The notes under the pieces: model-generated
The model's database searches: none
Told to the model about the DNA's origin: nothing
What the model saw: the letters and a program-made list of their open reading frames with translations, nothing else
In this document: one piece after another, positions 41,940 through 64,000 of the stretch
Numbering within the stretch: the first letter of the stretch is position 1
How the letters are laid out: every line of letters begins with the position of its first letter
Made by a program: the position numbers and the translations under genes
DNA from: Diplonema japonicum
Taxonomy: Eukaryota > Protista > Euglenozoa: Diplonemea
Length of the DNA stretch: 64,000 bases
Assembly (NCBI GenBank): GCA_964019335.1
Contig: OZ025670.1
Location: forward strand, 634,221-698,220
Reading direction: 5' to 3'

Positions 41940-42229
41940 CAACAGAGTATCTTCCTTTGTCCTGCCAGAGAACTTACGGAGCTTGCTGGAAAACAGAATA
42001 GATCTAAAACAGAGTGCAACACAACGCGAAAAGGTTATTCTAAAGGCACTTTAATAGAGGATCATGTGATGTGTATCGGTGCCGAGTGCACGAAGGTCTG
42101 CATGGTGCCACCGCACTATGTTTTTGTGTGTTGTGGATCGCCTAGTGACTCGAAGGTCATAATGTTTACTTTGCAGTTACCGTATTCAGCGCTTGCACTT
42201 CACAATGAGCAACACTATCACAGAATAGA

Positions 42230-45200
42230 ATGAACTATGACATTTCTTTCGGATCAGAATTGGATCAGATGAGCATTGATCAGGATGAGATAATTCACCT
42301 TCCGAGATCGAAGCATCCTGGGAGGACAATTTCAAGGGATGTGATTTGTTATGGATGTTCGTTCCTGGCATGCGCAGTAGCGATAGCTGTAGTGTGTATT
42401 GTAGTATTCAATACTGACGATTCACATGAGGATGACAACACCACAAGTGGGAAGCAGTTTATCAGACTCGTCAACGGCGACGTCCCCTCTGAGGGGAGAG
42501 TAGAGGTGTACCATGGCAGTGGTTGGGGCACTGTTTGTAGTGATAACTGGGACGTTCTAGATGCTACTGTGGTGTGCAAGCAACTTGGATATGCTGGGGC
42601 GTCTGACGCGCCTAAGGATGCTTTTTTCAGTGAAGGGAACGGGTCCATATGGCTAGATAATGTGAGATGTATGGGGAGCGAAGATTCGTTGCTATCGTGT
42701 CCAAGCCTTGGATGGGGCACCCATGACTGTCTTCACAGCCAAGATGCATCGGTTGTGTGTACAAACGAGATGCCTTGCGGGAGTTGTCCAGCGCTTCCGG
42801 TTCATGTGGGTCCTGTCTCTACAACCTTTGTTTTCTTGTGTGAAATCATGGCCAATGTTTCATCTACCTCACAGTGGAAACAAGTGAAATCCAAGCCTGG
42901 CACGCTGCTCACGATATCTATGAAGAACGGGAGCCCATTGTTCTACAACGGTACTGCAGTTTACGGAGGCTCTAGTGCTTGCTTGCTGAATTTGGCCGAT
43001 GATGTCGTAAGCGGAAAGTATGTCGGCCAGCTTCACGGCAGCAGCGGGGAACTTCACTGGATGCTATTGAACAGCAACAACTGGGAGGTGTCTCAAACCG
43101 ACACGTTCCCACCATTTGTAGAGTCTGTGGTCGTCTTGCCAAATCAGGTGATACGAAAGCACCCCACGACGCCCCAGCCTACAAAAGCACCTTGTTCATT
43201 CGGCGGGGTTTTGCAAAGTGCAACTTATCTAAAAGGCTGGGCACTGGGAGACTCAGCCACTTACACGGAAGAGGAAGCGATGACAAAGTGCATTTCGTAT
43301 AACTGGGGGTGCATGGGTATCACATGTAGCTCGGCTGATAAGTGTACCGTTCGTGCCCAAGCACAAATATTAACATCACCTTTCGGTGAGTATTCTTGCC
43401 TCAAACCAGAGCAGGAGCCTACTACGCCTGAAATTTGCATTGCCTGGAGGCAGACCGGTGGGTGCGTGTCTAGTGGTCCTAGGGAGCCAGACCGGGATAC
43501 TGACTGCAGCTACATGGTTCCAGCAGACGTGTCTGGCTATTGTCAATGTGGTGGTGGCAAAACAATCGACTTTTCTTGCGGTCCGCAAAGAGAGTACGGC
43601 AGCTGCGAGTATCTTTGCAAGCTCCCTCCTTATGACGAGTGTGTGGAAGATCATCCGTGCGGAGCCGAAGCAGAATGCAGCGACGCTAACACGTCACCTA
43701 ATAGCATCGGGGATGCGGTGTGCGTTTGTAGAAGTGGCTACACTGGCTATAGCACTAACAGCGTTCCTGAATGCACATCAGTTTATTCGTGGATAGAAGG
43801 CATACAGTGCCCAGAAAGCCTCTTTGAAATAGACAGTAGTGATGAGTGTTTGCAGGCAGCGATACAATTCAACAATCAAACGACTTCTGTTAGGACTGAG
43901 GGCTCGGGAGGGTGCCGCTTTGTGGATGATGAGTTTGTGTGGGGCCCGCCTGACCGTGCAGTTCAAATCAGCAGCAATGTCGCTACCTTATGCACGTCTA
44001 ATGCAATGCGTGGCGGTCTGGTTCCGCCACCTCAGACGTCTTCGAGTATCGAGAAGCAGGTGAATGCTGTTGGTAGCCTGCTGAAAAGAGTGCTAGGTGC
44101 TGATGCAAGCATGTTCCATGTTACTCTTGAACCCAGCCACGCAGACTCCTGCAGTCTTGATTCTGACGGGAAAACTGCGGATGTCAAAGGGAGTTCCATT
44201 TTAGCTGTGTGCAGGTGCATATATACATATATGAAAAAGAATGGGCTATCTGTCTCGTGGGGCAGAAAGAGAACTGGATACAATGTTTTTACAGTTGACT
44301 GGAGACCTGCGAACATTAAACACAAGGCTGTTGTCCCTCTACGGTATTCGTACAACACCTGCACCTTTAGCTATACTATGGCTTGGTGGGACTGGGATAG
44401 ATGGCAGCAGGAAATCGACTGGCTGGCATTGAGAGGTGTAAACCTACCTCTTGCATTTGTTGGACAGGAGAAAATCTGGAAGAATGTGTTTATGAATCTT
44501 GGGGTAAGCGACAGCGAAGTAAACACTTTTCTTGGAGGTGCTGCCTTTTTGGCTTGGGTATGTTTAGAATCTAACAGCTATCACACGCAGGAACGGATGG
44601 GGAATCTCGCTGAATGGGCAGGGCCGCTTTCCTCAGAGTTTATCAACAGCAGAAACAACCTGCAGGTGAAAATCCTAGATCGGATGCGTTCCCTGCGCAT
44701 GATGCCTGTGCTTCCTGCCTTTGCTGGTTATGTACCCCGTGTTATGAAGCAGCTATTCCCCAATTCGTCCTACGCCGAAAGCCAAAAGTGGAATGGGTTC
44801 GGTTCCACGGTGCTGCTGCAGCCTGATGACCCGCTGTTCGTGCATATATCTCAAATGATTATCAAAGAGCAGAAAGATACCTACGGCTGGGTGAGCCACT
44901 ATTATAATGCTGACACCTTCAACGAAATGCTTCCTTCCAGCAATGATCCATCATACCTGGCCGCTTCTGCTTCATCTGTTCTGGCGGGAATAAAACAAGG
45001 CGACCCATACGGCAAGTGGGTCATGCAAGGTTGGTTGTTTACAAATCACTGGTGGGGAAATGATGAGATCAGTGCCTACCTTTCTGATCTGCCAAGAAGT
45101 GACGTCCTTATTTTAGATTTGAACAGCGATGCAGCCCCCGTGTATCCGCGGACCAACAATTATTTCCACACTTCATTCGTGTGGTGCCTGCTCCACAACT

Positions 45201-46198
45201 TTGGAGGTCGCCCTGGCGTATACGGTAATATGGAAAATATCGCGAAGCAGTCGAGCGCAGCACTGAACAGAGTTGACGGCTCCATAGCAGGCATGGGAAT
45301 CACGATGGAGGCGACGCAACAGAATCCCATCGTCTATGATCTTTTGCTAGACCTCGCTTGGGACGGGACAGGTGCTGCTGCTGTCAGCAATTGGACAGAT
45401 GAATGGGTTGCATCGCGTTACGGACAAGGGAAGAAGCTGCAAGATGCATGGGACATCCTTTCCACTACTCTTTACAATGGCGAAGTAAACCCTCCTACTG
45501 ATAAGTGGATCATCTACAGCACACCCAACCTGAATAGTATGAAATGCGGCTGCTCGTACTGTCACGAAGATAGCAAAGTACACATTGCATGGTCAACCTT
45601 CCTCGATGCAGCAGCTACAGAGAGCTTGCTATGGAAGCGTGATCTGGCTGTGTTTACTGGCCTCGTACTGCAAACTGCAGCATGTAGGTTGTTTGATGTT
45701 CTTGACGCAAGGTTTCAGAGGTACACGAACACTCAAACCTCTAAAGAGGCTGCTAAGAAAGAACTGCTATCCTCTCTGGGAGAGCTTCTAGATGTGTACG
45801 ACACGCTAGATGACGTATTATCGACTGACCCTAACTTGCAGTTGGCGTGCTGGCTTGATGATGCAGGATCGTGGGGAAGCACCCCGGATGCAACAGCTTT
45901 GCTAAGGTTTGGGGCAAGAAATCAGGTCACGCTTTGGGGGCCTGATCCGGACTATTTGAATGACTATGCAAAGAAGTCATGGAGTGGCTTGGTGAAACAT
46001 TACTACAAAGGACGGTGGAAGATTGTTAGGGATATGGTTGCGAACGATGCTTTAGAAGGTTATTTACGTGCAGTGAGAGAGTTTGAAATTTCTTGGAACA
46101 ACGCACCCTATAACCAATCTTCCTGTGGGGCGACGGGCGATATTTACCAGCTGGCTCTCTCTGTTAGAAGGAAGTACTACGCCGGGTTTGTTGCGTGA
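42230..46198 (+). CDS. Membrane-anchored GH89 alpha-N-acetylglucosaminidase with SRCR, Cys-rich and EGF-like modules; in-frame intron 44558-44590
   Basis: SRCR motif IRLVNG..EGRVEV..WGTVCSDNW. GH89 motifs YNTCTFSYTMAWWDW, AFLAW|ERMGN (after splicing), DTFNEM, LHNFGG, ARNQVTLWGP and DYAKKSWSG. Confidence 0.9.
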   Translation: MNYDISFGSELDQMSIDQDEIIHLPRSKHPGRTISRDVICYGCSFLACAVAIAVVCIVVFNTDDSHEDDNTTSGKQFIRLVNGDVPSEGRVEVYHGSGWGTVCSDNWDVLDATVVCKQLGYAGASDAPKDAFFSEGNGSIWLDNVRCMGSEDSLLSCPSLGWGTHDCLHSQDASVVCTNEMPCGSCPALPVHVGPVSTTFVFLCEIMANVSSTSQWKQVKSKPGTLLTISMKNGSPLFYNGTAVYGGSSACLLNLADDVVSGKYVGQLHGSSGELHWMLLNSNNWEVSQTDTFPPFVESVVVLPNQVIRKHPTTPQPTKAPCSFGGVLQSATYLKGWALGDSATYTEEEAMTKCISYNWGCMGITCSSADKCTVRAQAQILTSPFGEYSCLKPEQEPTTPEICIAWRQTGGCVSSGPREPDRDTDCSYMVPADVSGYCQCGGGKTIDFSCGPQREYGSCEYLCKLPPYDECVEDHPCGAEAECSDANTSPNSIGDAVCVCRSGYTGYSTNSVPECTSVYSWIEGIQCPESLFEIDSSDECLQAAIQFNNQTTSVRTEGSGGCRFVDDEFVWGPPDRAVQISSNVATLCTSNAMRGGLVPPPQTSSSIEKQVNAVGSLLKRVLGADASMFHVTLEPSHADSCSLDSDGKTADVKGSSILAVCRCIYTYMKKNGLSVSWGRKRTGYNVFTVDWRPANIKHKAVVPLRYSYNTCTFSYTMAWWDWDRWQQEIDWLALRGVNLPLAFVGQEKIWKNVFMNLGVSDSEVNTFLGGAAFLAWVCLESNSYHTQERMGNLAEWAGPLSSEFINSRNNLQVKILDRMRSLRMMPVLPAFAGYVPRVMKQLFPNSSYAESQKWNGFGSTVLLQPDDPLFVHISQMIIKEQKDTYGWVSHYYNADTFNEMLPSSNDPSYLAASASSVLAGIKQGDPYGKWVMQGWLFTNHWWGNDEISAYLSDLPRSDVLILDLNSDAAPVYPRTNNYFHTSFVWCLLHNFGGRPGVYGNMENIAKQSSAALNRVDGSIAGMGITMEATQQNPIVYDLLLDLAWDGTGAAAVSNWTDEWVASRYGQGKKLQDAWDILSTTLYNGEVNPPTDKWIIYSTPNLNSMKCGCSYCHEDSKVHIAWSTFLDAAATESLLWKRDLAVFTGLVLQTAACRLFDVLDARFQRYTNTQTSKEAAKKELLSSLGELLDVYDTLDDVLSTDPNLQLACWLDDAGSWGSTPDATALLRFGARNQVTLWGPDPDYLNDYAKKSWSGLVKHYYKGRWKIVRDMVANDALEGYLRAVREFEISWNNAPYNQSSCGATGDIYQLALSVRRKYYAGFVA

Positions 46199-48734: not shown

Positions 48735-49296
48735 AAAATAGCTATTTATTGCCAACAAATGTCATTATTTTACTCGAGTTCCCGAATTTTTTGCACGAGG
48801 GCCCTGCAATTTTTCAAGGGGTTGGGTGCATCTTTTCCGCGGTGAGACCCATTTTTTCACTCTGAAGGGCCATTATTTAACTGCAAAATCTCATTACTGT
48901 AAAACAAAAATCCACCGGAAGATAAAATATCCGGACCGCCGAAACATCCGGTGATTTTTTCTTCCGGACATTTTTTGGGGCACTTTTCAAGGGGGTACCA
49001 AGCCTGTCCACGCTAGTAGTCCTACGCACTATCCCCTCCCCCTGTCTACTGCATGTTTCCCTGGAAAAACTTATGTTTCTGTTGCAGGAGTCTTAAAATT
49101 GGCAAAAATATGACTAAAAAAAAAAAGGGGTGAAGAACGTCCTACCTGTCCGTCTTGTTTGCTGCCTTCGCAGCCTTGGCAGTGTGCCTGGCCTCGGCCT
49201 CATAATGGCGATTTCGCGTTAAATAATGGTCATTTCACGTTAAATGATGAGGCCCCTAGTGAGTGAAGAAAATGACGAAGAGTGAAATTAAAAAAA
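48735..49296 (-). mobile_element. Rearranged inverted copy of the HINE/Helentron-like element at 51189-51757
   Basis: 48735-48895 and 49201-49296 are reverse complements of parts of 51185-51760. The middle is deleted and about 300 bp of unrelated sequence is inserted. Confidence 0.7.
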
Positions 49297-49309
49297 GGCG
49301 GAAAAAAAT

Positions 49310-49391
49310 CGCAGTCGGCAGGACTTGAACCTGCGCGGGCAGAGCCCAATGGATTTCTAGTCCACCTCCTTAACCGCTTGGATACGACTGC
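49310..49391 (-). tRNA. tRNA-Ser (anticodon AGA)
   Basis: 82 nt. Acceptor stem GCAGTCG/CGACTGC plus G, anticodon loop CT-AGA-AA, long variable arm, GGTTCAAGTCC, downstream T7 terminator. Confidence 0.95.
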
Positions 49392-49402
49392 TACGCGGAT
49401 AT

Positions 49403-50612
49403 ATTTTTTTTTCAAAATACCAATAGGTGCCACCATGGGGGAGCAACACCTGGGAAGGGGAAAGGTGAAGGGAAGCATGGAAATATTACAGGGAGGGCGA
49501 AGACCAGTTCTTCTGCAATCAGATGGAGCTGTGGACTCCGCCAACCCGTGCACCTGTTTGGAACAGCCGAAGAGGGCTGAATTACTTTAATTCCAAGCCG
49601 CGTAGACCTACGTGACTCGGACGGGGACCTTGACCCCAGTTCGTAGTTTTTCTCAACTGGGACCTCTGGTGACCGGAACTGGCCCCGGTCGCCCCCTCGA
49701 GAGGGATTTGCTCCATTGAGCGAAACATGAAAGGGTGAGAGTAAAATCTCTCAAAATCAAAAGGGGAAGCGAGCGTGCGTGTGCGCATGGGGATGATAGG
49801 GGAAGTATTTGCTCTCCCCGCTGCACTCCGGCAGGCGGGGGGAGGGGATGGCCGTACCACACTCGTTCGTGCGAAGATGAGAGGACTCATCAGGGCAACT
49901 TCAGAGTAGATCGGGCCATCCGTTTTGACTACAATGTCAGGGCACACGGCAACAAGAGGATGTTAATTTTAAAAATTTAAAAATTTAAAAGTGGGGACGG
50001 GCATACTGGTAAGAGAAAGGCCAGACGCCGGATGATGATGATAACATAAGAAAAGAGAAGGGAAGGGAACGTAAGCACTAAAAGAATTGAAAAGTTGATC
50101 TCACCATACTCACTTCAGCGCAACACGGGGGCCGCAGGGCCGGCGTCAAGGGAGACAGCCGGCGGGGGCGGGATGAACGAAGGGGCAGCGGTACCTGCTG
50201 TTGCCGCAGACGGCGACGTGAAGACCCCGGATCTGGCCCAGTCAAGCAAGCCAGAGTCGGCGATAAGGGTGAATACCTGCGTCACGCGTTTTGACAAGCA
50301 CTCCACCAGCGAGGGGCGTCCATTGGGAGCGTCGAGCGAACCCCGTCCAACCACAGCGCACCCCCCAACAACGTGCTCCCTGGACATCTGTGCTCCACAC
50401 GCTGGACAGCTGAGCTCAGCCTTCTTCCTGTTCGGTCCAGCCGCCTGCAGGAAGCCGAAGAAGAGAGCGGAGTGCCCTACCCTCAGCCGCGAGATGACCG
50501 TCTCCGCTAGCCTGGGGAGGGACTGGGGGAAGCACGCCGCTCGGAGCCCCGTGGCCCTCGCGTACCTCGGGGCCACCTCCCCGACAATGACCGCAGACCT
50601 CTGCTGAATCTG
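49403..50612 (-). mobile_element. Element A: 5'-truncated Ingi/I-group-like non-LTR 3' end (ORF remnant 50115-50612, ~700-bp 3' UTR, A tail)
   Basis: ISRLRVGH..CPAC..EH...C knuckle. TSD gcggatat at 49395-49402 and 50613-50620. Confidence 0.8.
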
Positions 50613-50624
50613 GCGGATATTTTT

Positions 50625-52295
50625 AATAATAATAATAATAATAATAAATGAACCACTGACGTGCGAAGCAAAGGCTGGGGGGGGGGGGGGGGGGACAGAA
50701 CAGGTGGACCAAGGGTCTCCCTGTATCTAACGAAAGGGGGAAAGGAATGAGATAACCTTGAAACTTTCGCTAAACTATCCATACGTACCGAGGACGGAGG
50801 TGGGGCCGGTTCGTGGGCTCCAGTGTTCGCGACTTCGCCCACCTCCGTGACCCCGGCAGCTCTCCAGCCCGCTTCCCTTGCCAGCACCCTTCGGGCGAAC
50901 CTCCGGGTTTTTGAGGAGTGGGGTACCTCGTCCGTGCTCGCCCTCACGAGCGGCACACTGGCACGGAGGCATCCCCTTCAGCCAGCTTTGTTGGGCGGCG
51001 GAGCCTTAGAAAATTCAAAACAATGGAAAATGATACGGGGGGATGTGTGAAGGGGCGGGGAAAGGTGAAGACAGAAGTTGGGGTGCACGACAGGGTAATA
51101 ATGGGAAACACAGGGGGAGGGGGAGAGGGTTCACTAGTACTTTTTGGTTCACTTTTTTCTGTTCCTTTTTTTTTTTTTTTTTTTTTTTATTTCACTCTTC
51201 GTCATTTTCTTCACTCACTAGGGGCCTCATTATTTAACGCGAAATGGCCATTATTTAACGCGAAACGGCCATTATTTAACGCGAAATCGCCATTATTTAA
51301 CTAGTTAAATAATGAGATTTTGCAGTTAAATAATGGCCCTTCAGAGTGAAAAAATGGGTCTTGTCGTGGAAAAAAATGCACCCAACCCCTTGAAAAATTT
51401 TTTTGGGGTGGGGGTATTTTGACTATTTTTGGCCATCTGAGGCCATTCCAGCCCTTAAAAGTGGGAATAAGTGCCTTACTTCCCCTTTAAATGCCACGGC
51501 GAAATAGCTACCCTGTATTACCTTAGGAAAATCCCCAAAAAGCTGACCTGCGTGAAAAAAAACAGCAGTGAAAGCAGTGAAGAGTGAGTGACTCAAATGA
51601 CGAAGAGTGAAATAAAACGACTTACTTGCCGCCAAATGAGCCATTATTTAACACTCGTTACCCGTTTTTTTGCACTCGGGCCCTGCGGGCCCTCGTGCAA
51701 AAAATTCGGGAACTCGAGTTAAATAATGACTCATTATTTGTTGGCAATAAATAGTTATTTTTTTTTTTTTTTTTTTTTTCTACGTCCTGCGATTGCGGTC
51801 AGCGGCTCGGCGGTCGTGAGAGTCTCAGATGAGGTCCATCCTCTTCAGGTAGGAGGCGGTTTCACTCACCCTCATTGTGAGCATCTCCTTCGTGGTCGTG
51901 GGGATGTCATCCCCGAAGATCTCTTCGCGGACCTTGTCTCCAGCTGGGCACCCGATCAGCAGATGGTGTCTGTCCTGGATCGAATGGCACGAGAGGCAAC
52001 GTATGTCACTCTGGACGGGTTTCGACAGGAAGCCGCAAGTCAGGTGGCTCCTGCCCGTTCGCAGTCTCGTTATCTGTACCTCATCGTGTCTGCAGGACAG
52101 CTCCTTCAAAGGGAGGTACCTCGCGCCGATCTCCTCTCGGTACTTCTTATCCCGACCAGTCTTCTCCCACGAGGCTGCCCAGTCGCGGTTCACCGACCTC
52201 TTGATGAGGCTCTTTGTGGTCATCAGGTCCGTCGGGCCGTCCGGTGTCGACTCCTTTGCGGCGCGTTTGGCGTGTCGGTCGGCTTGCTCGTTACC
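50625..52295 (-). mobile_element. Element D': truncated, near-identical copy of the element D 3' end with a (TTA)n tail, interrupted by the HINE-like insertion
   Basis: 51780-52295 is the reverse complement of 54742-55257, and 50625-51165 is the reverse complement of 55289-55820, with few substitutions. Confidence 0.9.
51189..51757 (+). mobile_element. Non-autonomous Helentron/HINE-like rolling-circle element inserted in a T tract
   Basis: 23-bp asymmetric subterminal inverted repeats (51185-51207 and 51595-51617), about four 21-bp tandem repeats, a ~100-bp 3' stem-loop (51636-51734), T runs on both sides and no coding capacity. Confidence 0.6.
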
Positions 52296-52755
52296 AGGTC
52301 AGCCTTCGACGGATGATGGACCACATCGGTTGGAAGCCGTCGTCTATCATCCGACGCTCTGACACGGCGTTCCAGGGCACGAGGCAGCTCGTGTTCTTCA
52401 TCGTCGCCGACGCCCCGCCCCCCAAGGCCAGGACATGGCTCTTCGGCTCTCTCCTCGTTCGACTGCACGACGCGGAAGCCACCCGAGCGTCACACTCCCG
52501 CCCCGCACCAAGAAGGCTCCACCCGCGGCTCAAACGCCGGTTGCGGCAACCACAGCCCAGACGCCGGCCCCTGACCCCACGGCGCAGTCCACAGGGCTGC
52601 CGAGCACCAATCCGTGGTCATCACCACCGAGCTCGGTAGCCCCTCCGCCACTTGGCACTGTGACTCCGGTCCCCTCCGCGGCTTCCCTGGCCACCACACC
52701 TCCCCATGACCGGAACCTGAGGCTCCTCACGCTGATCCAGTCGCATCACTTGGCC
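52290..52755 (+). pseudogene. Degenerate fragment of the element F ORF1
   Basis: Aligns to about 61890-62455 with frameshifts and deletions. Confidence 0.85.
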
Positions 52756-52801
52756 CTATCCCTCTCCCAACCCCTTCCTTCCTCTCACGAGTTGGCCCAA
52801 A

Positions 52802-55257
52802 CAGACGGCATCTACAACGAAATGCTGAAGTACCTGGGACCGGTGGCCAGGGAAGTTCAACTCCTCCTCTACAACTCATCCCTCCAGACCGGTGTCGTCC
52901 CTGCCGAATGGAGGCGGTCTTCCATCATCCCCCTCATGAAAAAGGGCAAAGACCAATCCGAACCCGCCTCGTACAGGCCGATCGCGCTGACGTCAAACAT
53001 CGTGAAGACGTTGGAGCGAATAGTCAAGGACAGGATGTGCTTCCTGCAGGACACAGGACGGGTAAGGCAATTGCACACATCGCAGGCGGGTTTCCGGAAA
53101 GGGAGGTCCACGGAGGAAAACGTGCTGTACGCCGCCTCAAAGCTCAAAAGTGTCAGACTGAGCCAAGGTCTGGGGGGTCTCCTGCTGTTCGACTTCAAAG
53201 GAGCCTTCGACACAGTCTGGCACAAGGGAGTGATCGCAAAGCTGATAGGCGACGGATACCCTCCCAAGCTCGTGAAATGGATCACCTCTTTCCTCGACCA
53301 ACGTAAAGCCTCCGTCTGTGTGAACGGGGAACACGGCTGCGTGAAGACAATGACAGGGGGCGTACCCCAAGGCACCATCCTGGCCCCGCAGCTCTTTTCC
53401 ATCTACGTCAACGACCTGGCCAGGTTGTACAGGAAGGCTGGAATCGACGCGGTAGTGTACGCAGACGACATAGCGATAGTGCTGGAGGCGGGGAGTCCTG
53501 CCGAGCTGAACAAGAAGGTGCAACGCGCGGTGAGCCTCACGGAGCGATGGTGCGAGACGTTCTCGATGAAACTGTCCCAGGAAAAGACAGAGTTCATGCC
53601 GGTAGAGGGACAGTTCTGGAACTCGCACGACAGTCTCGCAAACCTCATCAACGCCCGCTTCCCCTCGAGTGGGGCGAAAGTCAAGGTGGTACGCGAGGCT
53701 AAATATCTTGGCGTCACCTTCGACGAAAGCATGAACTTCCACGAGCATGTGCAGAAGGTGAAGGGAAAGATCAACAGCCGTCTTCGCCTGCTGCGCAAAC
53801 TCGCCGGAACAAGGTGGGGCTGCCGCAAGCACACCCTAAGGACGCTGTACCTGACGTACGTCCAACCGGTTCTGCGCTACTGTCTCGGTGCTTACGGCAA
53901 CTTCGTGGGACATGCTGCTCTGGCCGAGTTCGACTCGCTACAATACACAGCAGCGAGGTTGATAACGGGATGCTTCGACAAGACTTCCGCGACGGTGACC
54001 AGGTCAGAGGCGGGCATCTGGGAGATTGAATCCTTGCTGGAACACGACACCCTGGTGCTCTACGAGAAGGCACAGCGTCAACCGGGGACAACAGCGGAGA
54101 AGGCAACAAAGATATCCGGGGGTCAGATGTGGTACGGGAAAAGCTGGCGAAACACCGCGCTCGACTTGGCGAAGAGTCACGGGATGCCGGAACGCGAAGA
54201 CCTACCACACCACTCAGTCACTCAGAGCGCAGACCTGCAGCTCCCTCCATGGGTCCAACCCAAAGTCCTGTTCCACCCCGACCTAGTCCGCAAGGTACAC
54301 AAGAAGGACGAAAAAAGTCTCAAACTCCGAGCGGCCTTCGAATCGATCAGGAGGCACGGCATCCCAGATGTGATCGTCTACACCGACGGGTCAGTCACCG
54401 GACACAGGAACGGCGGTTCGGCAGCTGTGATAAGGATCGGGTCTGACACACCGAAGCAGGCACGCAAGAGCGGAGGAGCAGTGACTTCGGCCTACCGATG
54501 CGAACTGAAAGCGCTGAACCTGGGGCTGCAATTGACACTGTACCATACCCGGAGACAAGGTGTGACGACCGGAGTAGTGCTGCTGTGCTCGGACTCCCAG
54601 TCGGTGATCAGAAGACTGATGCAGGGCCACAGAGAGATGAGGCAGAAGGAGGAACTGCTGGCTTGGAAATGGCTGGACGCGCTTGACCGCCAAGGCCTCT
54701 CCACCATCATCCAGTACGTTCCCGGACACTGCGGCCTACCAGGTAACGAGCAAGCCGACCGACACGCCAAACGCGCCGCAAAGGAGTCGACACCGGACGG
54801 ACCGACGGACCTGATGACCACAAAGAGCCTCATCAAGAGGTCGGTGAACCGCGACTGGGCAGCCTCGTGGGAGAAGACGGGTCGGGACAAGAAGTACCGA
54901 GAGGAGATCGGCGCGAGGTACCTCCCCTTGAAGGAACTGTCCTGCAGACACGATGAGGTACAGATAACGAGACTGCGAACGGGCAGGAGCCACCTGACTT
55001 GCGGTTTCCTGTCGAAACCCGTCCAGAATGACATACGTTGCCTCTCGTGCCATTCGATCCAGGACAGACACCATGTGCTGATCGGGTGCCCAGCTGGAGA
55101 CAAGGTCCGCGAAGAGATCTTCGGGGATGACATCCCCACGACCACGAAGGAGATGCTCACAATGAGGGTGAGTGAAACCGCCTCCTACCTGAAGAGGATG
55201 GACCTCATCTGAGACTCTCACGACCGCCGAGCCGCTGACCGCAATCGCAGGACGTAG

Positions 55258-55292
<35 letters not shown>

Positions 55293-55820
55293 CAGAAAAA
55301 AGTGAACCAAAAAGTACTAGTGAACCCTCTCCCCCTCCCCCTGTGTTTCCCATTATTACCCTGTCGTGCACCCCAACTTCTGTCTTCACCTTTCCCCGCC
55401 CCTTCACACATCCCCCCGTATCATTTCCCTTTGTTTTGAATTTTCTAAGGCTCCGCCGCCCAACAAAGCTGGCTGAAGGGGATGCCTCCGTGCCAGTGTG
55501 CCGCTCGTGAGGGCGAGCACGGACGAGGTACCCCACTCCTCAAAAACCCGGAGGTTCGCCCGAAGGGTGCTGGCTTGGGAAGCGGGCTGGAGAGCTGCCG
55601 GGGTCACGGAGGTGGGCGAAGTCGCGAACACTGGAGCCCACGAACCGGCCCCACCTCCGTCCTCGGTACGTATGGATAGTTTAGCGGAAGTTTCAAGGTT
55701 ATCACATTCCTTTCCCCCTTTCGTTAGATACAGGGAGACCCTTGGTCCACCTGTTCTGTCCCCCCCCCCCCCCCAGCCTTTGCTTCGCACGTCAGTGGTT
55801 CATTTATTATTATTATTATT
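52802..55820 (+). mobile_element. Element D: 5'-truncated Ingi/I-group-like non-LTR retrotransposon (RT, RNase H, zinc knuckle; stop at 55212; 3' UTR with internal A tract; (TTA)n tail)
   Basis: DGIYNEML, YRPIALTS, QAGFRKGRST, GVPQG, YADD, KYLGV, VYTDGS, GHCGLPGNEQAD, RLRTG. TSD (tt)ggcccaaa at 52792-52801 and 55819-55828. Confidence 0.93.
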
Positions 55821-55842
55821 GGCCCAAAATCGAATGCGAACC

Positions 55843-55915
55843 GGCGAGTTCGCACTAGCGGTTAGGACCTCCACTAACCGTTAGTTAGGTTCCTGGTTCG
55901 ATTCCGCGTCAGCGC
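55843..55915 (+). promoter_or_regulatory. tRNA-derived internal Pol III promoter (A/B box) at the head of element E
   Basis: D-loop-like CTAGCGGTTAGGA (55855-55867) and B box GGTTCGATTCC (55895-55905) at tRNA spacing. The cloverleaf stems are degenerate. Confidence 0.65.
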
Positions 55916-56213
55916 TAGTATTAGTATATCATCCTCTACCTGTCGGGTTGGCTGACCGGACGAAAAGTTCCACCATCTGGAACTTGAACCTGGACCGCCG
56001 GTGGAGGGATCCCCAAACCCAACAACTCCACCAAGTTGGAAAGTGGTGGCCACTTGCATAAAACCAACAAACTAACCTGTAGTTCCTGATACTCACTGGC
56101 GAACAGCACCAAAGGGCGGGGATGTCAAGAGACCAGTGCCAGTACCAGTGAGTCGTAATGTAAAGGTAAAGGGACAAACGGGGGAGGCCTCCGGGCCTCT
56201 TTTAAAAAAAAAA

Positions 56214-56338
56214 GGGGTCCGATTACACACACACATGAACATGTAGACGAACGCGGTGTGTGTGGTGGCTGCCCACCTCCACGGTGGTGGTCCCTGGGCA
56301 ACGCGCAGGTGGTGAAGGTTGCGCGGCTGAGAGGCAGC
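56214..56338 (+). ncRNA. HDV-like self-cleaving ribozyme
   Basis: P1 GGGGUCC/GGUCCCU, P2 GCUGCCC/G(A)GGCAGC, P3 ACC/GGU, L3 UCCACGGU, GG-GCAA, P4 CGCGCA/UGCGCG, J4/2 GCUGA. Confidence 0.8.
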
Positions 56339-57554
56339 TCGAGAGGAGGAGCAGGGGAACGGTGTTGCGTTGGGCGGCCGAGGGCCGGAGCCGGAGCGCC
56401 GTGTTGGATGGCATCCCCTGGGGAAGCCTCCTGCACGCCAGAACGAGGACCGGATCCGGAGACGCCGTTTGATGGTTTTCCTGGGGAAGCTGACCTGAAC
56501 GCCCGAGCGAAGTGGCCTGAGCGTGGGGAGCACTGTTTGCCGACAGAAAACAAGATTAATGCAAAATGTCCAGAGTGCGCAACAGTGTTTTCCACGTGAG
56601 GGGTTCGATTTCAAAGTGGGTCCTCCAGCCACCAGAGTTGTAGGCTGGGTTCCCGCGGAGAGAGAATCGGAGCGGAGGCGTCAAGTACGGTGGACCACCT
56701 CAAGGGATGTAAGTCCATTGTGTGACACAGTCTCTCGGTGAAGGTCCGACTTCTGGTGGGTAGGCAGGCAGAACCGCATAGGGGTGTAAGGAACACCATT
56801 GTGTGACCTGTCGCACACGGGGAAAGCCCAAGGCCGGTGGGTTATCTGCCAACGTGTCCCCCTCCTCTACTTCGCCTCTCACAACCTCTTCCTCCCCGCT
56901 GACGATTGACTCCACAGCACTCGCCGGCCTACCTGGTGCGCCCGCGTCATTACGCGATAGGGAGTCTCGTTGGAAAAACATCTTTCGCAGCTGAGAAGGG
57001 GGGTTTTTTTTTTTTTTAGAAATAGTAACCAGTAATTCTTTTTTCCCCCTCCCCCATTGGTTTCCCTTTCTTTTTATTTTCCCTACCAGGCTCCTTTTCT
57101 AGTTATGCATTCCTCCCTTCTTTGTGGAAGTTGAGTTCTGAACTTGACTTTTCCTTTTACATTTCCTTTTCAAATTTATATTTTAGGCTCCCACAGCCCA
57201 ACAAAACCAGCAGATGGTGGGGTCCCTGTGGCTGGATAAATCAAAATTAGGGATCTCATCGCCGTCCTTTAATATTTGGGGTTGTCTTTATTTGGTGACA
57301 GCCGAAGCCTTCGAGGCCCAAGAGCTGCGTGGCGGGGGAATGGGGAAAAAATAAGAAAGGTGGATGTCGGGGGCCCAGGAAAATATACAAGAGGTCGAGC
57401 AAACGAGCAAGAGGTCCCCCCCGATATGGCTCAGTAAGAGAGACTGTTTTAACCTTCCCTTCCCAATTTTTATGGTTTCAACTTTCTCCGCCCCCCATCC
57501 CCCCCCGCCTGGTAGTGGAATAATTATTATTATTATTATTGGCCCAAAATCGTC

Positions 57555-57626
57555 GGCTCGGTGGTCTAGTGGCATGATTCTCGCTTAGGGTGCGAGAGGT
57601 CCCGGGTTCAATTCCCGGCCGAGCCC
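57555..57626 (+). tRNA. tRNA-Pro (anticodon AGG)
   Basis: 72 nt. Acceptor stem GGCTCGG/CCGAGCC, anticodon arm CTCGC-TTAGGGT-GCGAG, GGTTCAATTCC, T6 terminator. Confidence 0.97.
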
Positions 57627-57705: not shown

Positions 57706-60420
57706 GTGGCTACTTGACTCCCCGACAACGATGGTAGAGGGACTTCACCCCGCCCAGGCTGGCTTCAGGAAAGGGAGGTCCACCGAGGAGCAGGTTGCCG
57801 CCATCGTGCAGCATGTGACGATAAAAAGGAACGCCGAAGTTAAGGAGGCATGCCTCACCATACTCTTTGACTTCTCAAAGGCGTTCGACAGGGTCAACCA
57901 CGAGGCACTCATTCAGAAGATGTCTCAGAAGCGCTTCCCTACGGCCTACACCAGGTGGGTTTCCTCCTTCCTAACGTCCAGAACAGCGAGGATAGTCGTG
58001 GAGGGTGTCAAGGGGACCCCTTACAAAATCAAGAGTGGCGTGCCTCAAGGTTCTGTACTCGGTCCAGTGCTGTTCACCATCTTCGTGGACGACCTAGCGA
58101 GGGAACTTGAGGGTCTGGCTGGGCTCTCCACGATCTACGCGGACGACGTCGCGGTAGTAGTCTCTGCCACAACAAGGACTGAGCTCGAGGCCAGGGCCAC
58201 GGCGGTAGTGGGTGCAGTCGAAGACTGGTGTACACGATGGGGGATGCAGTTGAGCAGGGAGAAGACGCTGTACGTCCCCACCCCCAAATGCGAACCGTAC
58301 GACTTCCACGTCTACTACCCCTCGACCGGGGCGACGCATCCGGGCTTCGAATTCCAGCCGCTGGAGCTCAAGGGCCGACTCATCGCCGGGGGACCTACTC
58401 ACCTGATCGGGAGGAGGCTCCTGTCCGTTAACCGCACGGCCACGACACGACGCGACGTCTCTGCACTCGTCTCCAAAGGGCTGGTGTATGAATTCTCCAC
58501 GGCCGTCCCCGTTGCGAGGCGTGATAGGGCCAAGTATCTAGGGGTCATCCTTGACGCTGGCTTGTCTTTCGGTGCCCATGCCCGCGACATCATCGAGAGA
58601 TACGACAAACGAATTCGCATACTGCGGCTCCTCTCCGGCTCGTCCTGGGGCAGTTCAGCAGCATCACTCAGGTCCTTGTACCTGGCCTACGTCCTACCGG
58701 TGTTCACCTACTCGATTGGCATCTTCTTCGCACTGATGTCTGCTCAAGACAGGAAGGCACTGTGCATGAGGCACGATGAGGCAGCCCGACGAATCACGGG
58801 GTGCGTCAAGAACACCTCCACCTCGGCTGTACTGTGTGAGGCCCGCTTGCGCCCGCTCGACCTGATGGCCGACGCTGCTTCTGCCATTCTACTGCAGAGG
58901 GCACTGAGGTGGGTGGGAACCCCGGTGAACAGGGTGGTCAGGGGTGCAGCTACCGCAGGATGGGCCTTGGGAGCGCTGAAGGCGACGAGGAGTTCTGGGC
59001 TGAGTGCGGTTGCTTCCCTACCGCTAGGGCCTGATACGAGAGCCCCCCCCTGGGCGGAAGGCATCCACGTCGATCCCTACGCCACCGACACCAGGAGGAC
59101 ACTCCCCGACGATGTGAGGGCGGCAGCGGCTGCGGAAAAGCTGGACGAGATCCCAAGCGGCGCTCTGGTAGTGTACACGGACGGCTCGGTGATAAGGGGG
59201 AGAGGGGGAGCTGGGGTTGCCCTCAGAGTCCCCGACATGGACCTCACCCTTACCACCTCTCACGGGGCCGGCATGGTCTCCACACCCATGTGCGCCGAGG
59301 GCACCGCTATCCTGATGGGGTTGAAGGAGGCTGCGGAGGTGTACAAAACGGTCGTGAACCTGAGGGGCCGCCCTCTCTACCTGCTGACCGACTCACAGAC
59401 GATGCTGCGGAGGCTCGCTGGAGGCCCCGGACAGCAGAGGGAGTCCACGGACAGACGGATCTGGGATGCCGCTTCCTGGCTCAGGGCCAAACGCTCTGGT
59501 GATGTGCACTTCTGGTACATCCCCTCCCACTGCGGTGTGACGGGGAACGAGCTCGCCGACGGAGCGGCCAGGGACGGGCTGTCGAAGTCGCCTTGCGGGG
59601 TTAGCTACCGCTCCAGCAAGGCGGCCATAAAAGCGTGGCTGAGAGGAAGGTCGCGTGCGAGATACAACAGCGACTCCCCCGGCCACCACCGCCTCGTCAC
59701 CGGTGGCGAATGTCTCTCTCTCCCACCACTCAGTAGGAGGGATGAGGTCCTGATCATTCGGCTCCGGACCGGACACACGCCTTTGAATAGGGGGTACCTC
59801 CAGCTCAAGGGACCCCTGAGGGCTGAGGGGAGTCATCACCTCACCTGCCCCGCCTGCAACGTTCAATCACCGCTCGACGCTGATCACCTGCTGAGGGGCT
59901 GTCATTCTCTGGCTCCCACAGCTAAGTCCTTCTACGACACTGGGCTGCCGCTCCGCGCGCTGCTTTCCAAGCACTCCGCCGAGGTCTGCGCCTTCATCGA
60001 GGCCTCCGGGCTCTTATCATGGTCTGAGTGTGGGATCTTCCCCCCGGCCGACGCAGCACAAGGGTGATCGTGAGCCCATTATAGACCCCCCCCCTACCCC
60101 TTTGTCCCCCCCCCCCCCCCCCCCCCACACACACACACTCACACGCAAATGGGCCAAGAAACAACCTCCCGGGAGGCAGCCACAGGGAAGGCCGGGAGGG
60201 CGCAGGGCGCAGCAAGAGAACGCCCCTGCGTTCAGCCTCGAGGGGACCGCCCCGAATGTAATCAGCCAGGTCGGCTGTCCCAGGAAGGGGGAACGGAGCA
60301 CCGAAGGGAAGGTTCAGCCCACGTGGTGGCCCTCTCGGTTACTCCAGACAAAAGACTGGACACACCCCACACCCCTCCCCCCACCCCCAGTTTCCCCCCA
60401 GTGGTTATTATTGCAAAAAA
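57706..60420 (+). mobile_element. Element G: 5'-truncated Ingi/I-group-like non-LTR retrotransposon (RT, RNase H, CCHC; stop at 60067)
   Basis: QAGFRKGRST, DFSKAFD, GVPQGSVLGP, YADD, VYTDGS, SHCGVTGNELAD, RLRTGH, CPAC..H...C. A tail. TSD aaagtgt at 57699-57705 and 60421-60427. Confidence 0.92.
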
Positions 60421-60444
60421 AAAGTGTATCCCCCGCCGCTGATT

Positions 60445-60480
<36 letters not shown>

Positions 60481-60488
60481 AAAGAATC

Positions 60489-62714
60489 ATGTCGACCTCC
60501 AACAAGAAGAAAAAGAGGCCCGCTCACCACAAGTCCAGGACGGAAGAAATCCTGGAGAAAGCCCGCGGTGAGCGGGTAAAGGACAACGCCGCCGCCAGGG
60601 CGAAGCGCACGCGCGAGGAGGTGGAGAGGAAGCGCGCAGAGGGGGTCACGCCGGTGGTGACACCCTCCCCCGGGCAAGGGAAGAAGGCGGCCAGAAGGGC
60701 CAGACAGAAGGCAGCAGCTGCTGACGCTGCCACCGCCGCCGCTTCGGGCTCCGACGACTCTGTCGTCTTAATTAGCGAGTCGCCGGGCGTTGTCACCTCG
60801 TTCACGGTCGACACGCCAGAGGTCAGGAGGGCGAGGATGAGGACTGCTGCCGCCGACACCACTGCCACTGCTCCTGCACCTGCTGCTGCCAACACCACTG
60901 CTCCTGCACCTGCTGCCGACTCCCCTGCTCCTGCACCTGCTGCTGCCGACACCACTGCTCCTGCGCCTGCTGCTGCCGACTCCCCTGCTCCTGCGCCTGC
61001 TCCAGCCTCTACTGCTGCCGTGTGGTCTGCTGCCGTCCTCACTGCCGCTGCCTGCGACACCGCCCTCCCCATGTCGGACTCTGACACCGACGAGAAGGAC
61101 ACGGCCCCCGCTCCCGCACCGGCCCCGGAGCCTCACTGGGATCTGGTCCCCGACACGTGGGACGCCCCCATCTACACCAACACTGCTCCCCCTGAGGAGG
61201 TGCCCCGCGCCGTCGTCGCTCTCGACGACCTCCAGCAGGTGGACGCGATTCGCACTGCGAGGCCCACGGCCTCCCTGACCTTCGTCCTCTTGACGGAGGT
61301 TGCCGGTTCGACCACCCCATGCACCGTCATCGTACTCGCCGGCCAGCGTGTCGTGCACAAGGCCGTGCACACCTTCTCGGTCGGGTCGAACCCCCCCTCC
61401 TACACCCCACTCGCTTCTTTTGATGGCGGCTCTGAGGTAGTGTACGTCAGCGTGAAAGCTGACAGCGTGAACGCGGCGAAGGCCAGGGTTCGGGACCTCG
61501 TCGCGACCCAGGGCGTGGCGGTGGAGGAGCAGGCGATCTTCCGCCCGAAGAAGATCGACGGGAACGAGCCGCGGGCGCGGCACTGGAGCCACGAGGTGGG
61601 CCTGCGGCTCCCGGCGGCATCCGTCCATGCGGTACTCCGGGCCTCGGGCGACGGCTGCATGGTCAGGACGACCGAGCGGCGCGGGGGGTACACCTACGTG
61701 CCCATCGTAGCGGAGGGGAGGGCGGAGGCCTTCCAGCTGGCGAAGGCACTGGGCGGGTTGTCCCTGGGGGTGGCCCATCGCAAGGGTTGGACCGTGAGGT
61801 GCCTGCCGGAGACGGAGCAGCGTCTGAGGGAGGCCCTCGCCAAGCAGAGGACAAAGCGTCGGTACCTGCTCACCGGAGCCCCGCTGTCTGTTACCAGGGC
61901 AGCCTTCGACGGGATGATGGACCACATCGGTTGGAAGCCGTCGTCCATCATCCGACGCTCTGACACGGCGTTCCAGGGCACGAGGCAACTCGTGTTCTTC
62001 ATCGTCGCCGACGCCCCGCCCCCCAAGGCCAGGACATGGCTCTTCGGCTCTCGTCTCGTTCGACTGCACGACGCGGAAGACCACCCGAGCGTCACGCTCC
62101 CGCCCCGCACCAACAAGAAGGCCCCACCCGCGGCTCGGACGCCGGTTGCGGCAACCACGGCCCAGACGCCGACGCCGGCCCCTGGCCCCACGGTGCAGTC
62201 CACAGGGCTGCCGAGCACCAATCCGTGGTCATCTCCACCGAGCTCGGTTGCCCCTCCGCCACTTGGCACTGTGACTCCGGTCTCCTCTGCGGCTTCCCCG
62301 ACCACGACACCTCCCCGTGACTCCCAGAAGAAGAATCCCGCACCGGAACCAGAGGTCCCGGCGCTCCTCGCGCTGATCCAGTCGATGCAGGCGACCATCG
62401 ACGGTCTGCAGGCGACGGTCCGCGACCTCCAGGAGAGGATGGCAGCGTCACTTGGCGCGCCGGCGTCATCTGCAGACGGAGCTGGGCGGACGGCAGTGGC
62501 TGGGAAGGGCAAGGGCGGCAAGGCTGGGTCCAAGGCAGGGACGAAGGGGCACCAGGCGCAGGGCGTAAGCACGCCAGGCCCCTACCCGACATCGACGGAG
62601 CAAGGGGGCGGAAGGGGACGCGCCCAGTCGCTGGCTGGCGACTCTGCTTCCCCCAACGGGGCCGGCCGTGGACGGGCAGCCTCTGTGGGCCCGGCCCCCG
62701 CCCCTGCCAATTGA
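60489..62714 (+). CDS. Element F ORF1 (741 aa; basic N-terminus, Ala/Pro/Thr repeats, coiled coil)
   Basis: ATG follows a (GA)n tract. The ORF directly precedes the APE ORF, and a second decayed copy lies at 52290. Confidence 0.75.
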   Translation: MSTSNKKKKRPAHHKSRTEEILEKARGERVKDNAAARAKRTREEVERKRAEGVTPVVTPSPGQGKKAARRARQKAAAADAATAAASGSDDSVVLISESPGVVTSFTVDTPEVRRARMRTAAADTTATAPAPAAANTTAPAPAADSPAPAPAAADTTAPAPAAADSPAPAPAPASTAAVWSAAVLTAAACDTALPMSDSDTDEKDTAPAPAPAPEPHWDLVPDTWDAPIYTNTAPPEEVPRAVVALDDLQQVDAIRTARPTASLTFVLLTEVAGSTTPCTVIVLAGQRVVHKAVHTFSVGSNPPSYTPLASFDGGSEVVYVSVKADSVNAAKARVRDLVATQGVAVEEQAIFRPKKIDGNEPRARHWSHEVGLRLPAASVHAVLRASGDGCMVRTTERRGGYTYVPIVAEGRAEAFQLAKALGGLSLGVAHRKGWTVRCLPETEQRLREALAKQRTKRRYLLTGAPLSVTRAAFDGMMDHIGWKPSSIIRRSDTAFQGTRQLVFFIVADAPPPKARTWLFGSRLVRLHDAEDHPSVTLPPRTNKKAPPAARTPVAATTAQTPTPAPGPTVQSTGLPSTNPWSSPPSSVAPPPLGTVTPVSSAASPTTTPPRDSQKKNPAPEPEVPALLALIQSMQATIDGLQATVRDLQERMAASLGAPASSADGAGRTAVAGKGKGGKAGSKAGTKGHQAQGVSTPGPYPTSTEQGGGRGRAQSLAGDSASPNGAGRGRAASVGPAPAPAN
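60845..61010 (+). repeat. Imperfect 27-36-bp coding tandem repeat ((A)ADT/SPAPAPA)
   Basis: gccgac(accact/tcccct)gctcctgc(a/g)cctgct is repeated about five times. Confidence 0.8.
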
Positions 62715-62855
62715 AGGGGTCCCGCTGAGCAGGGGGGGCGTCAGATCGACGACCACGCCCCCTCTCCTGGTCTCCCGCGCATACAGCCGAGGAGACACCT
62801 TCCACATCACTTGTACGACGTCCTCCCTTCCTTGATCCCTTCCTTACTTGAACGG

Positions 62856-64000
62856 ATGTCGGCCAGGGACCTGCTGGGGCTGCTTGGGCTGGTTGAGACG
62901 AACCCCGGTCCACCTAAGAAGCTCCCACCCCCGAAGCCGAAGGGACTCAGGGTCCTGTCCTGGAACTGCAACGGTCTTGCCGCCAAGTGGTCAACCGTGT
63001 CCTACCACGCTGTCCTACTGACGCTGGATATCATTATGATCCAGGAGACACACCTTAGGGAGGGGCATGAGACACCATACCTGCCTGGATACACGTCCTA
63101 CAGGAGGGACCGCACAACACCGGTGACGGACGGCTCTGCGACGAGAGGCGGTGGTGTCATCACGTATGTCCGTGACTGCCTTGCCTCGGAGGAAGCTCCT
63201 TTCGTACTCCCTGAAGGTGACAGTGTCACTGAGCGATTAGACGTGAGGATCTCCTGTGTGAAGCGCGTCCCGGTCACCCTCTCCAACGTGTACCTCACGC
63301 CTGTGAGTATAAGCAGAGGAACAAGGGACCCCGAGTACCTACGGCCGGGCAGCCTACCTGTGGGGAAGAACACGATCGTTGCTGGCGACTTCAACGCACA
63401 CCACAGCTCTTGGGATGCCAAGGTGACAACGCCCAACGAAAGGGGGAACGTGGTCAGGGACTGGCTTGACACCCACGGCTACACCGTCTACAACAACCGA
63501 GACGAGCCGACGCGGGACTCACCGCCACGCGTTCTGGACCTGGTGGTGGGACGTTGTGCGGAACTGGAGCCGAGGACGTTGGGGACGTGGGGCTCTGATC
63601 ACAGCCCGGTTTCCTTCCGCCTGCCGCTTGAGGACGCCTACTGCTCGGAGCGACCCTGCCCTACCTGGAACTTCAAAAAGGCCAGGTGGGACGACTTCAC
63701 CGCGGCCGCCGCTGCCCTTCTGACCAAGATCGACACGAAGGCCCACATTGACTCCTTCACGAAGGAGGTTACAGAGGCTCTTCTGCATGCAGCTGACGAC
63801 CACATTCCGCTTTGCGGAGTGCGACGAGGCCCGACCCCCTGGTGGACGGCCGAACTCGAAGACGCCTTCGAAGAACGGAACGCCCTGCGGGATCGCTTCC
63901 TCAAGTCGGCTGAGACTGAGGACGACAGCGTGGCGGCGGTCTACAAGGCGAAGGTCAAGGAGGTAAACCAACTCATGACCGAGTCGAAGCGCGCGGCCTG
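62856..64000 (+). CDS. Element F ORF2 N-terminus: 2A-like motif and AP endonuclease; continues past the window end
   Basis: Absent from the ORF track because it has no stop in the window. Translates to LVETNPGP, SWNCNG, IQETH, GGGV, GDFNAHH, GSDH and WNFKKARWDDF. Confidence 0.92.
   Translation, partial: MSARDLLGLLGLVETNPGPPKKLPPPKPKGLRVLSWNCNGLAAKWSTVSYHAVLLTLDIIMIQETHLREGHETPYLPGYTSYRRDRTTPVTDGSATRGGGVITYVRDCLASEEAPFVLPEGDSVTERLDVRISCVKRVPVTLSNVYLTPVSISRGTRDPEYLRPGSLPVGKNTIVAGDFNAHHSSWDAKVTTPNERGNVVRDWLDTHGYTVYNNRDEPTRDSPPRVLDLVVGRCAELEPRTLGTWGSDHSPVSFRLPLEDAYCSERPCPTWNFKKARWDDFTAAAAALLTKIDTKAHIDSFTKEVTEALLHAADDHIPLCGVRRGPTPWWTAELEDAFEERNALRDRFLKSAETEDDSVAAVYKAKVKEVNQLMTESKRAA

Follow-up and report, generated by a model that had tools for sequence, protein, structure and literature searches.

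A predicted HDV-like ribozyme appears to form the 5' end of a 1.33-kb retroposon, E2, that was likely copied by an ingi/L1Tc-like LINE and inserted upstream of a tRNA gene in Diplonema japonicum; taken as a whole, we consider this account reasonably probable. E2 lies in the window, by which we mean the whole 64-kb stretch of DNA analyzed, as the downstream part of an element E whose upstream part, E1, is a foreign segment. The features concerned are as follows.

52363..55820, plus strand: upstream 5'-truncated LINE with an RT and RNase H ORF (Pfam RVT_1, RNase_H), 3' UTR and (TTA)n tail
55821..55832, plus strand: left target-site duplication (TSD), 12 bp, an exact repeat found at 55821 and 57541 only
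55833..56213, plus strand: E1, foreign 5' segment ending in a GC-rich hairpin and A10
56180..56203, plus strand: E1 3' hairpin, whose 3' arm (56192-56203) is predicted to be able to pair alternatively with 56210-56221, hiding the P1 5' strand
56204-56213, plus strand: A10 run, directly 5' of G56214
56214-57540, plus strand: E2, ribozyme-headed non-autonomous retroposon, 1.33 kb
56214..56339, plus strand: predicted HDV-like ribozyme (fold mapping, Rfam placement, covariation with the X13 homologue)
56214-56220/56289-56295, plus strand: P1, first pair G-U, one U-U
56215..56216, plus strand: spliced-leader junction in one X1 contig, the leader's last G at 56215 and the element resuming at 56216
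56222..56266, plus strand: J1/2 (P1.2) hairpin, (CA)n/(UG)n, arms 56222-56232/56256-56266, 11 consecutive pairs
56267-56274/56331-56339, plus strand: P2, with A56332 bulged
ACC/GGU, plus strand: P3
56278-56285, plus strand: L3, 8 nt, with U20, C21, C22 and G25 equivalents
56296-56297, plus strand: P1.1 GG, followed by a GCAA linker
56302-56307/56320-56325, plus strand: P4, 6 bp
56326..56330, plus strand: J4/2 with the predicted catalytic C56327 in GCUGA, unchanged among the X1 and X13 differences listed
56408..56599, plus strand: 63-codon ORF in E2
57020..57540, plus strand: 3' half of E2, sharing homology with the upstream LINE's 3' UTR (55309-55820), with a (TTA)n end
57541..57552, plus strand: right TSD, 2 nt before the tRNA gene
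57555..57626, plus strand: tRNA-Pro(AGG) gene, the insertion lying 14 nt upstream

All the parts of the HDV fold named in the first-pass annotation are in place. By fold mapping over 56214-56339, the nested double pseudoknot of P1, P1.1, P2, P3 and P4 is complete, J4/2 fits the C-N-R-A pattern and L3 carries the nucleotides expected of HDV-like ribozymes. Three deviations from the canonical fold had also been noted: the U-U pair in P1 is indeed present, but the P2 bulge and the A77-to-G change are features of the family and not decay. One published HDV descriptor, in the accessible part of PMC6326823, reads C-R-R-A, with a purine allowed at position 77, although at position 76 it calls for R and the E2 ribozyme has U. 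The predicted cut 5' of G56214, after the A10 run, does fall on an element boundary, but the first nucleotide is uncertain by one base. In an alternative register starting from A56213, P1 is paired at 7/7 positions with two wobbles, and by rough estimate is less stable than the G56214 register (-5.8 vs -8.0 kcal/mol). Because this register pairs throughout and the spliced-leader contig is one G shorter than the window, the first pair may be A1-U instead of the G1-U wobble. An obligatory purine at +1 was considered and rejected, since trypanosomatid ribozymes begin with C. Stable J1/2 hairpins speed cleavage of the Agam-2-1 ribozyme, according to the available text of PMC4908430. The J1/2 hairpin loop also holds an ATG-TAG start-stop at 56241-56246, which is unchanged among the X13 differences listed.

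A descriptor relaxed so that the E2 ribozyme passes has one match in the 64-kb window on both strands, the ribozyme itself, and it matches 179 of 2199 shuffled windows (8%); the pattern match by itself is modest evidence. The search with HDV-like models proposed with the first reading, made here with Rfam, succeeded in placement and fell short in score: both HDV models land at 56262-56339, RF02682 with 22.5 bits (E 0.23, cut-off 44) and RF00094 with 19.8 bits (E 6.4, cut-off 50), neither reaching its gathering score, the long J1/2 not being spanned by either model. A fold search of E1, the LINE A head and the LINE C head gave no second HDV-like fold. The single full-length LINE head of the window (60060-60600) has none, and no autonomous LINE bearing the ribozyme of E2 was found among the window LINE heads.

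A core pattern taken from the E2 ribozyme retrieved one viral and 33 metagenomic loci. Hits selected in this way are informative for P2, J4/2 and the first pair; P3 and L3 are not independent of the pattern. Complete folds were present at 30 of the 34 loci and represent 13 families, the incomplete folds L006, L024, L027 and L033 having been left out before families were counted. A one-nucleotide bulge after the first P2 pair occurs in 11 of the 13 families (A in six of these), the same GCUGA J4/2 occurs in four, and the first pair is G-U in five, G-C in four and A-U in four. In a 16-row alignment, from whose hand-picked rows the structure itself was derived, 87% of cells are paired in the bulged P2 register, against 24-48% when the whole structure is slid to other registers. 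Each of the 13 families matches an Rfam HDV family at E <= 0.38; two, both with GCUGA and the P2 bulge, score above the Rfam cut-off, and the other 11 complete comparators lie under it, like the E2 ribozyme. No homologue of E2 occurred among the metagenomic and viral pattern hits, where blastn matched the 38-nt core alone. Six contigs of a single metagenome assembly (L007, L015, L017, L019, L021 and L034) carry one HDV-like family, which is probably the head of a repeated element.

The main support for the fold, which we regard as decisive, comes from sequence comparison with a homologue in another organism. Four (X1, X11, X12 and X13) of the 23 sequencing runs listed were compared over 55700-57550. 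X13, from organism D, contains one 1286-nt contig homologous to 56214-57486 with ~92% identity. Its P1 is Watson-Crick paired at 7/7 positions, U-U being replaced by G-C, C-G by U-A and G-U by G-C, and P4 has a compensatory change of A-U to G-C. P2, P3, L3, P1.1 and J4/2 are unchanged among the differences listed, and the invariance of P2, P3 and P1.1 makes these helices uninformative for covariation. X13 lacks two pairs at the periphery of the fold, the one at the base of the J1/2 hairpin and a G-U situated above P4, the second of which the null model leaves uncounted. When 10 random substitutions were placed on the 103 positions, at least three double-sided pairs with at most one break arose in 4 of 200,000 trials (2e-5), and in the alternative P1 register the same null gives 4.5e-4. 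These values rest on two sequences, with the X13 differences read by hand (40 of 87 are listed, apparently complete in order to ~56800) and the X13 P1 5' strand taken from a loose-end consensus (30/33 letters). Covariation, which the first-pass annotation had proposed as a check, is seen in P1 and P4 between the window and X13. The deepest contig of X1, from organism A, matches the window over 56215-57002 except for one base, at 56857, and the window ribozyme is therefore the family type and not a decayed copy. X11 and X12 have no contig over the ribozyme. The two-sequence covariation and the natural comparators together back the HDV-like reading, cleavage itself being predicted from the fold: that the fold is a selected one is close to certain, and that the family self-cleaves is probable.

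Contig boundaries place the ribozyme at the start of a unit of its own. In X1, positions 55841-56212 (372 nt) lie on a separate 955-nt contig of depth 255, whose sequence departs from that of the window at either end and, after nine As, runs into GGG and unrelated sequence; the E2 contig, of depth 3251, begins at 56215. In X13, the E2 contig begins 5 nt before G1, covers E2 only and has depth 251, the last two of its five leading letters matching the end of the window TSD; E1 is partly covered by a separate contig of depth 5.5. The contig starts lie no more than 1 nt (X1) and 5 nt (X13) away from the predicted cut, as expected of a Pr77-type start at +1. The depths of E1 and E2 are 13-fold apart in X1, which is read as probably RNA and whose depths are not copy numbers, and about 45-fold apart in X13. 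No contig bridging the E1-E2 junction was found among the pieces listed. The separate contigs identify E as a chimera of E1 and E2. The ribozyme had been described as lying ~380 nt inside the element, which is correct for the TSD pair, but it is the 5' boundary of its own unit, E2; a position buried within an element is not supported, given the contig starts and the separately continuing contig of E1. On these sequence boundaries, the ribozyme is very probably the 5' end of a separate non-autonomous element. With no target copy separating E1 from E2, the chimera is most simply explained by a template jump.

Another X1 contig exits E2 at 57538 into a different flank, which to the eye, over 30 letters, looks like the start of a tRNA, and in X11 a (TTA)n tail is followed by a 5'-truncated E2 that starts at 57185. 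The LINE-like 3' half, the (TTA)n tail, the TSD, the second flank and the truncated copy are marks of target-primed reverse transcription. Several other junctions in this region are of interest. Depth in X1 falls from 3251 to 1322 over 56973-57031, with at least two contig variants, so that more than one type of 3' half may follow the first 790 nt of E2. The last ~57 nt of the LINE (55764-55820) recur in a deep X1 contig, of depth 993, and in a contig of X13; upstream of this stretch the two contigs differ from the window and are similar to each other, and they probably represent a further family of short elements that shares this 3' end. In the region 55833-55854, the six nucleotides 55835-55840, which the E1 source contig lacks, form the reverse complement of 55849-55854 and resemble a snap-back 5' junction, in the sense used in the accessible part of PMC11331408. 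A T-run and AG, splice-acceptor-like, precede E1 in its source contig, and 55835-55840 could alternatively be the end of an upstream exon.

The locus reads, in order, LINE tail, 12-bp repeat, E, 12-bp repeat and tRNA, which is the target, TSD and tandem arrangement of a SIDE, and E2 combines a 5' ribozyme with a LINE-derived 3' end and has no RT ORF, as SIDEs do. The last 520 nt of E2 align locally to the 3' UTR of the upstream LINE with a score of 161.5, against shuffle scores of 58 +/- 9 (maximum 107.5, n=200), and this LINE is, by its sequence, a candidate for the kind of driver concerned. The window is gene-dense eukaryotic DNA. From ~49400 on, it carries non-LTR retrotransposons that encode APE, RT and RNase H domains, two groups of which end just upstream of tRNA-Ser and tRNA-Pro; by domain layout, not phylogeny, they are likely ingi/L1Tc-like. 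The best named homologues of the SNF2 protein (68%) and RT (45%) of the window are from Diplonema ambulator, D. papillatum standing lower in the SNF2 homologue list. The window holds no further copy of E1, which has a B-box-like motif at 55895 and no A-box match. Pfam and HMMER gave the 63-codon ORF no family and no credible homologue, the one borderline HMMER match (E 9.5e-4) being to a repetitive stretch, and six of its nine listed X13 differences are at third codon positions. A zinc-finger remnant of an R2/CRE-like ORF in E2 was considered and rejected: it had one weak Pfam DUF match (E 0.036) besides the borderline repetitive HMMER hit, and tblastn against the window LINE ORFs was insignificant. 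A bacterial promoter and terminator scan gave results at chance level.

The surrounding sequence contains further structures. A second stack lies on the minus strand at 49392-50660, upstream of tRNA-Ser, in the order LINE (TTA)n tail, short tRNA-flank repeat, 5'-truncated element with an A-run end, tRNA flank; short AT-rich, MITE-like repeats with a 21-nt period, direct and inverted, surround this tRNA (48761-51730). A large inverted duplication (50631-55820) has two ~0.55-kb arms of LINE 3' part that are ~98% identical, and at 52311-52710 a piece of ORF1 from another LINE is fused in frame to the RT ORF. Within 60489-64000, LINE ORF1 stops at TGA 62712-62714 and is followed by an in-frame linker carrying a 2A-like motif, together with an APE domain. 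A long ORF at 42209-46198 encodes an SRCR domain and a full alpha-N-acetylglucosaminidase (NAGLU).

The feature of E2 that is new is a spliced-leader junction inside P1; the ribozyme itself is in the ordinary R2/L1Tc position. The junction falls 1-2 nt inside P1 in one contig of one run, X1. The 20-nt loose end before 56215, together with the next G, equals the 3' end of several euglenozoan spliced-leader exons, as tabulated in the available portions of PMC3795323 (see also PMC7859406). No spliced-leader motif occurs in the window, and X13 has no leader at the corresponding place. X1 is probably an RNA library, a reading based on the leader junction and on the modest length of its longest contig (7380 nt). 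The E2 RNA is likely trans-spliced, and we think it probable that the junction reflects real trans-splicing; if X1 is DNA, the leader-joined contig would be a retrocopy of such an RNA. Because the element resumes at 56216, the implied acceptor is 56214-56215, where the window has GG and not AG. The acceptor would be AG if expressed copies carry three Gs, in which case ribozyme nt 1-2 would be the acceptor and the first pair would be A-U; several further small indels, for the most part within homopolymer runs, set X1 apart from the window (12 of 23 rows listed). An element RNA starting at +1 without a leader was not seen in this one contig of one run, and unspliced RNA may coexist. Self-cleavage and leader addition would be mutually exclusive, since cleavage parts the acceptor from the branch point and the leader puts U opposite U at the cut site. 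It is likely that the 5' end of E2 RNA is made in two competing ways.

The folding of this copy within its native flank is relevant to that competition. With the flank, the anti-P1 pairing 56192-56203/56210-56221 has a predicted probability of 0.97-0.98, and the anti-P1 fold is ~4 kcal/mol more stable than the ribozyme plus flank hairpin (-70.7 vs -66.8); during transcription the flank hairpin would form first. In an alternative nested fold, the P2 5' strand pairs with the P1.1/J1.1-4 strand. Without the flank, the margin of the HDV fold over the free MFE is -3.2 kcal/mol, compared with -0.2 to -8.2 for nine comparators, in an energy comparison that is crude, consisting of nested folding with pseudoknot and Mg2+ terms outside it. 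The upstream flank may thus misfold P1 in the window copy. Flanking sequence affects the activity of trypanosomatid ribozymes (PMC4035085, accessible part), and in R2 templates the fold aids even without cleavage, according to what is available of PMC11331408.

We propose that E2 would be transcribed within a longer read-through RNA, from which the ribozyme would cut 5' of nt 1 to leave an uncapped, fold-protected RNA of unit length. A protein encoded by a LINE would attach to the LINE-like 3' end and, starting at the (TTA)n tail, reverse-transcribe the RNA at a nick located 14 nt upstream of the tRNA. On reaching the ribozyme end, the reverse transcriptase likely jumped to a second RNA, E1, at a site of shared A-run/GGG microhomology, and one TSD pair encloses both E1 and E2 as a result of such a jump. 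Uncleaved molecules would likely be trans-spliced at an acceptor overlapping ribozyme nt 1-2, the product being capped and keeping nearly the whole fold, with a U-U pair at the cleavage site. We suggest more tentatively, as a possibility that we would not favor at present, that the double use of nt 1-2 as trans-splice acceptor constitutes a functional two-way switch. Self-cleavage would then remove the branch point and yield an uncapped, retrotransposition-ready RNA, leader addition would mismatch the cleavage site and yield a capped, abundant, translatable RNA, and the flank of each insertion would decide which route wins.

Trans-splicing may instead have taken over 5' end formation, leaving a relic ribozyme that cuts inefficiently and at most shields the RNA end, the X13 relative being active. 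The P1 of the window, with one U-U or two wobbles, is weaker than that of X13, the deepest X1 contig is the leader-joined one, misfolding alternatives are predicted, and the fold of R2 templates helps without cleavage (PMC11331408, in its accessible part). Yet the catalytic core is unchanged and P4 is still compensated, the window copy is leaderless and starts at the cleavage site, and the margin of -3.2 kcal/mol is within the range of the nine comparators (-0.2 to -8.2); contigs cannot show cleaved ends, so that the absence of such ends is uninformative. We judge a relic to be unlikely. Less likely still is that E1 and E2 are one element, with an internal ribozyme that would divide the element's RNA or generate the 3' end of E1, despite the single TSD pair around both without a target copy between them, and despite the ending of E1 in a hairpin, UUUU and an A run: the two parts occupy different contigs, whose depths differ 13-fold in X1 and about 45-fold in X13, and the E1 contig runs into other sequence with no bridging piece among those listed.

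At a similarly low level we place the idea that E2 is a domesticated host gene for a small protein or stable non-coding RNA, retrocopied now and then from its capped transcript, in which the ribozyme tunes expression level by pre-empting trans-splicing. The depth of E2, high in both X1 and X13, would agree with such a gene, as would the leader junction, the conservation of about 92% and the third-position bias of differences in the 63-codon ORF (6/9), but the 3' UTR of LINE type, the tail, the TSD, the second flank resembling a tRNA and the truncated copy fit an active retroposon, and the ORF is without a homologue apart from the one borderline, repetitive hit (E 9.5e-4). Chance resemblance with no selected fold is scarcely credible. 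Although the descriptor also matches 179/2199 shuffles and the Rfam scores are below threshold, compensatory changes and the presence of an element boundary at the predicted cut largely refute it.

Among known systems, a ribozyme-headed retroposon of this kind would work like NARTc/SIDER and the R2/R1 hybrid SIDEs, by analogy. The L1Tc/NARTc, ingi/RIME and SIDER elements with Pr77 (PMC3185411 and PMC4035085, as far as accessible) likewise have a euglenozoan host and an HDV-like ribozyme at +1 of a non-autonomous element, with neighboring LINEs encoding APE, RT and RNase H and with a flank that modulates the ribozyme, an effect that for E2 is predicted; TbSIDER2, of the same group, also has a large extra hairpin. 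The E2 ribozyme differs from Pr77, in a comparison by layout and not sequence, in having 126 nt, an 8-nt HDV-type L3 and a (CA)n hairpin in place of the 77-nt hallmark, and E2 has a tRNA-upstream target and a (TTA)n instead of a poly(A) tail. Its spliced-leader junction lies inside P1, whereas L1Tc RNA is reported as unspliced and leaderless in the available text of PMC3185411. We do not class E2 as a Pr77 element, since the RNA contig seen is leader-joined and the comparison is one of layout.

The closest architecture, by analogy, is that of the R2/R1 hybrid SIDEs of Drosophila (PMC3414825, accessible part), which combine a 5' ribozyme with the 3' UTR of a different site-specific LINE and stand in tandem with that LINE with TSDs between. 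The same text records U12 and tRNA sequences 5' of the R2 ribozyme as products of R2 template jumps. E2 differs in its target, the 5' flank of a tRNA gene and not 28S rDNA, and in its ~0.7 kb unique middle with a small ORF, and trans-splicing is not described for SIDEs in what is available of that source. The genomic HDV ribozyme, the F. prausnitzii-type ribozymes (RF00094, RF02682) and the 13 comparator families share with E2 the P3/L3/P1.1/GCAA core, the C-N-R-A J4/2 and the P2 bulge; unlike the HDV and F. prausnitzii-type ribozymes, that of E2 has a 46-nt structured J1/2 and a eukaryotic retroposon context, and scores below both Rfam cut-offs. Theta ribozymes (PMC10879173, in the part accessible) also place an HDV-like fold near tRNA genes, but they are minimal and within ~5 nt of the tRNA, whereas the tRNA of E2 is 1.3 kb downstream and is the insertion target only. 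Three of the metagenomic folds (L016:1316-1469, L023:44-193 and L025:282-434) are full-size and start at the 3' end of a tRNA gene, a theta-like placement but with the P4 helix present.

The literature searched, in which subscription papers (e.g., Ruminski 2011) and image tables were outside reach, holds no report of a diplonemid ribozyme-headed retroposon, and the word ribozyme is absent from the text of the D. papillatum genome paper and its seven supplements. A competition between self-cleavage and trans-splicing on one RNA is likewise not described in the accessible parts of the literature searched. If our account is correct, ribozyme-headed non-autonomous retroposons would extend from trypanosomatids to diplonemids, and E2 would show a passenger that releases itself from a read-through RNA and rides a tRNA-targeting LINE. 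The leader junction inside P1 would provide a testable case of self-cleavage and trans-splicing competing on one RNA.
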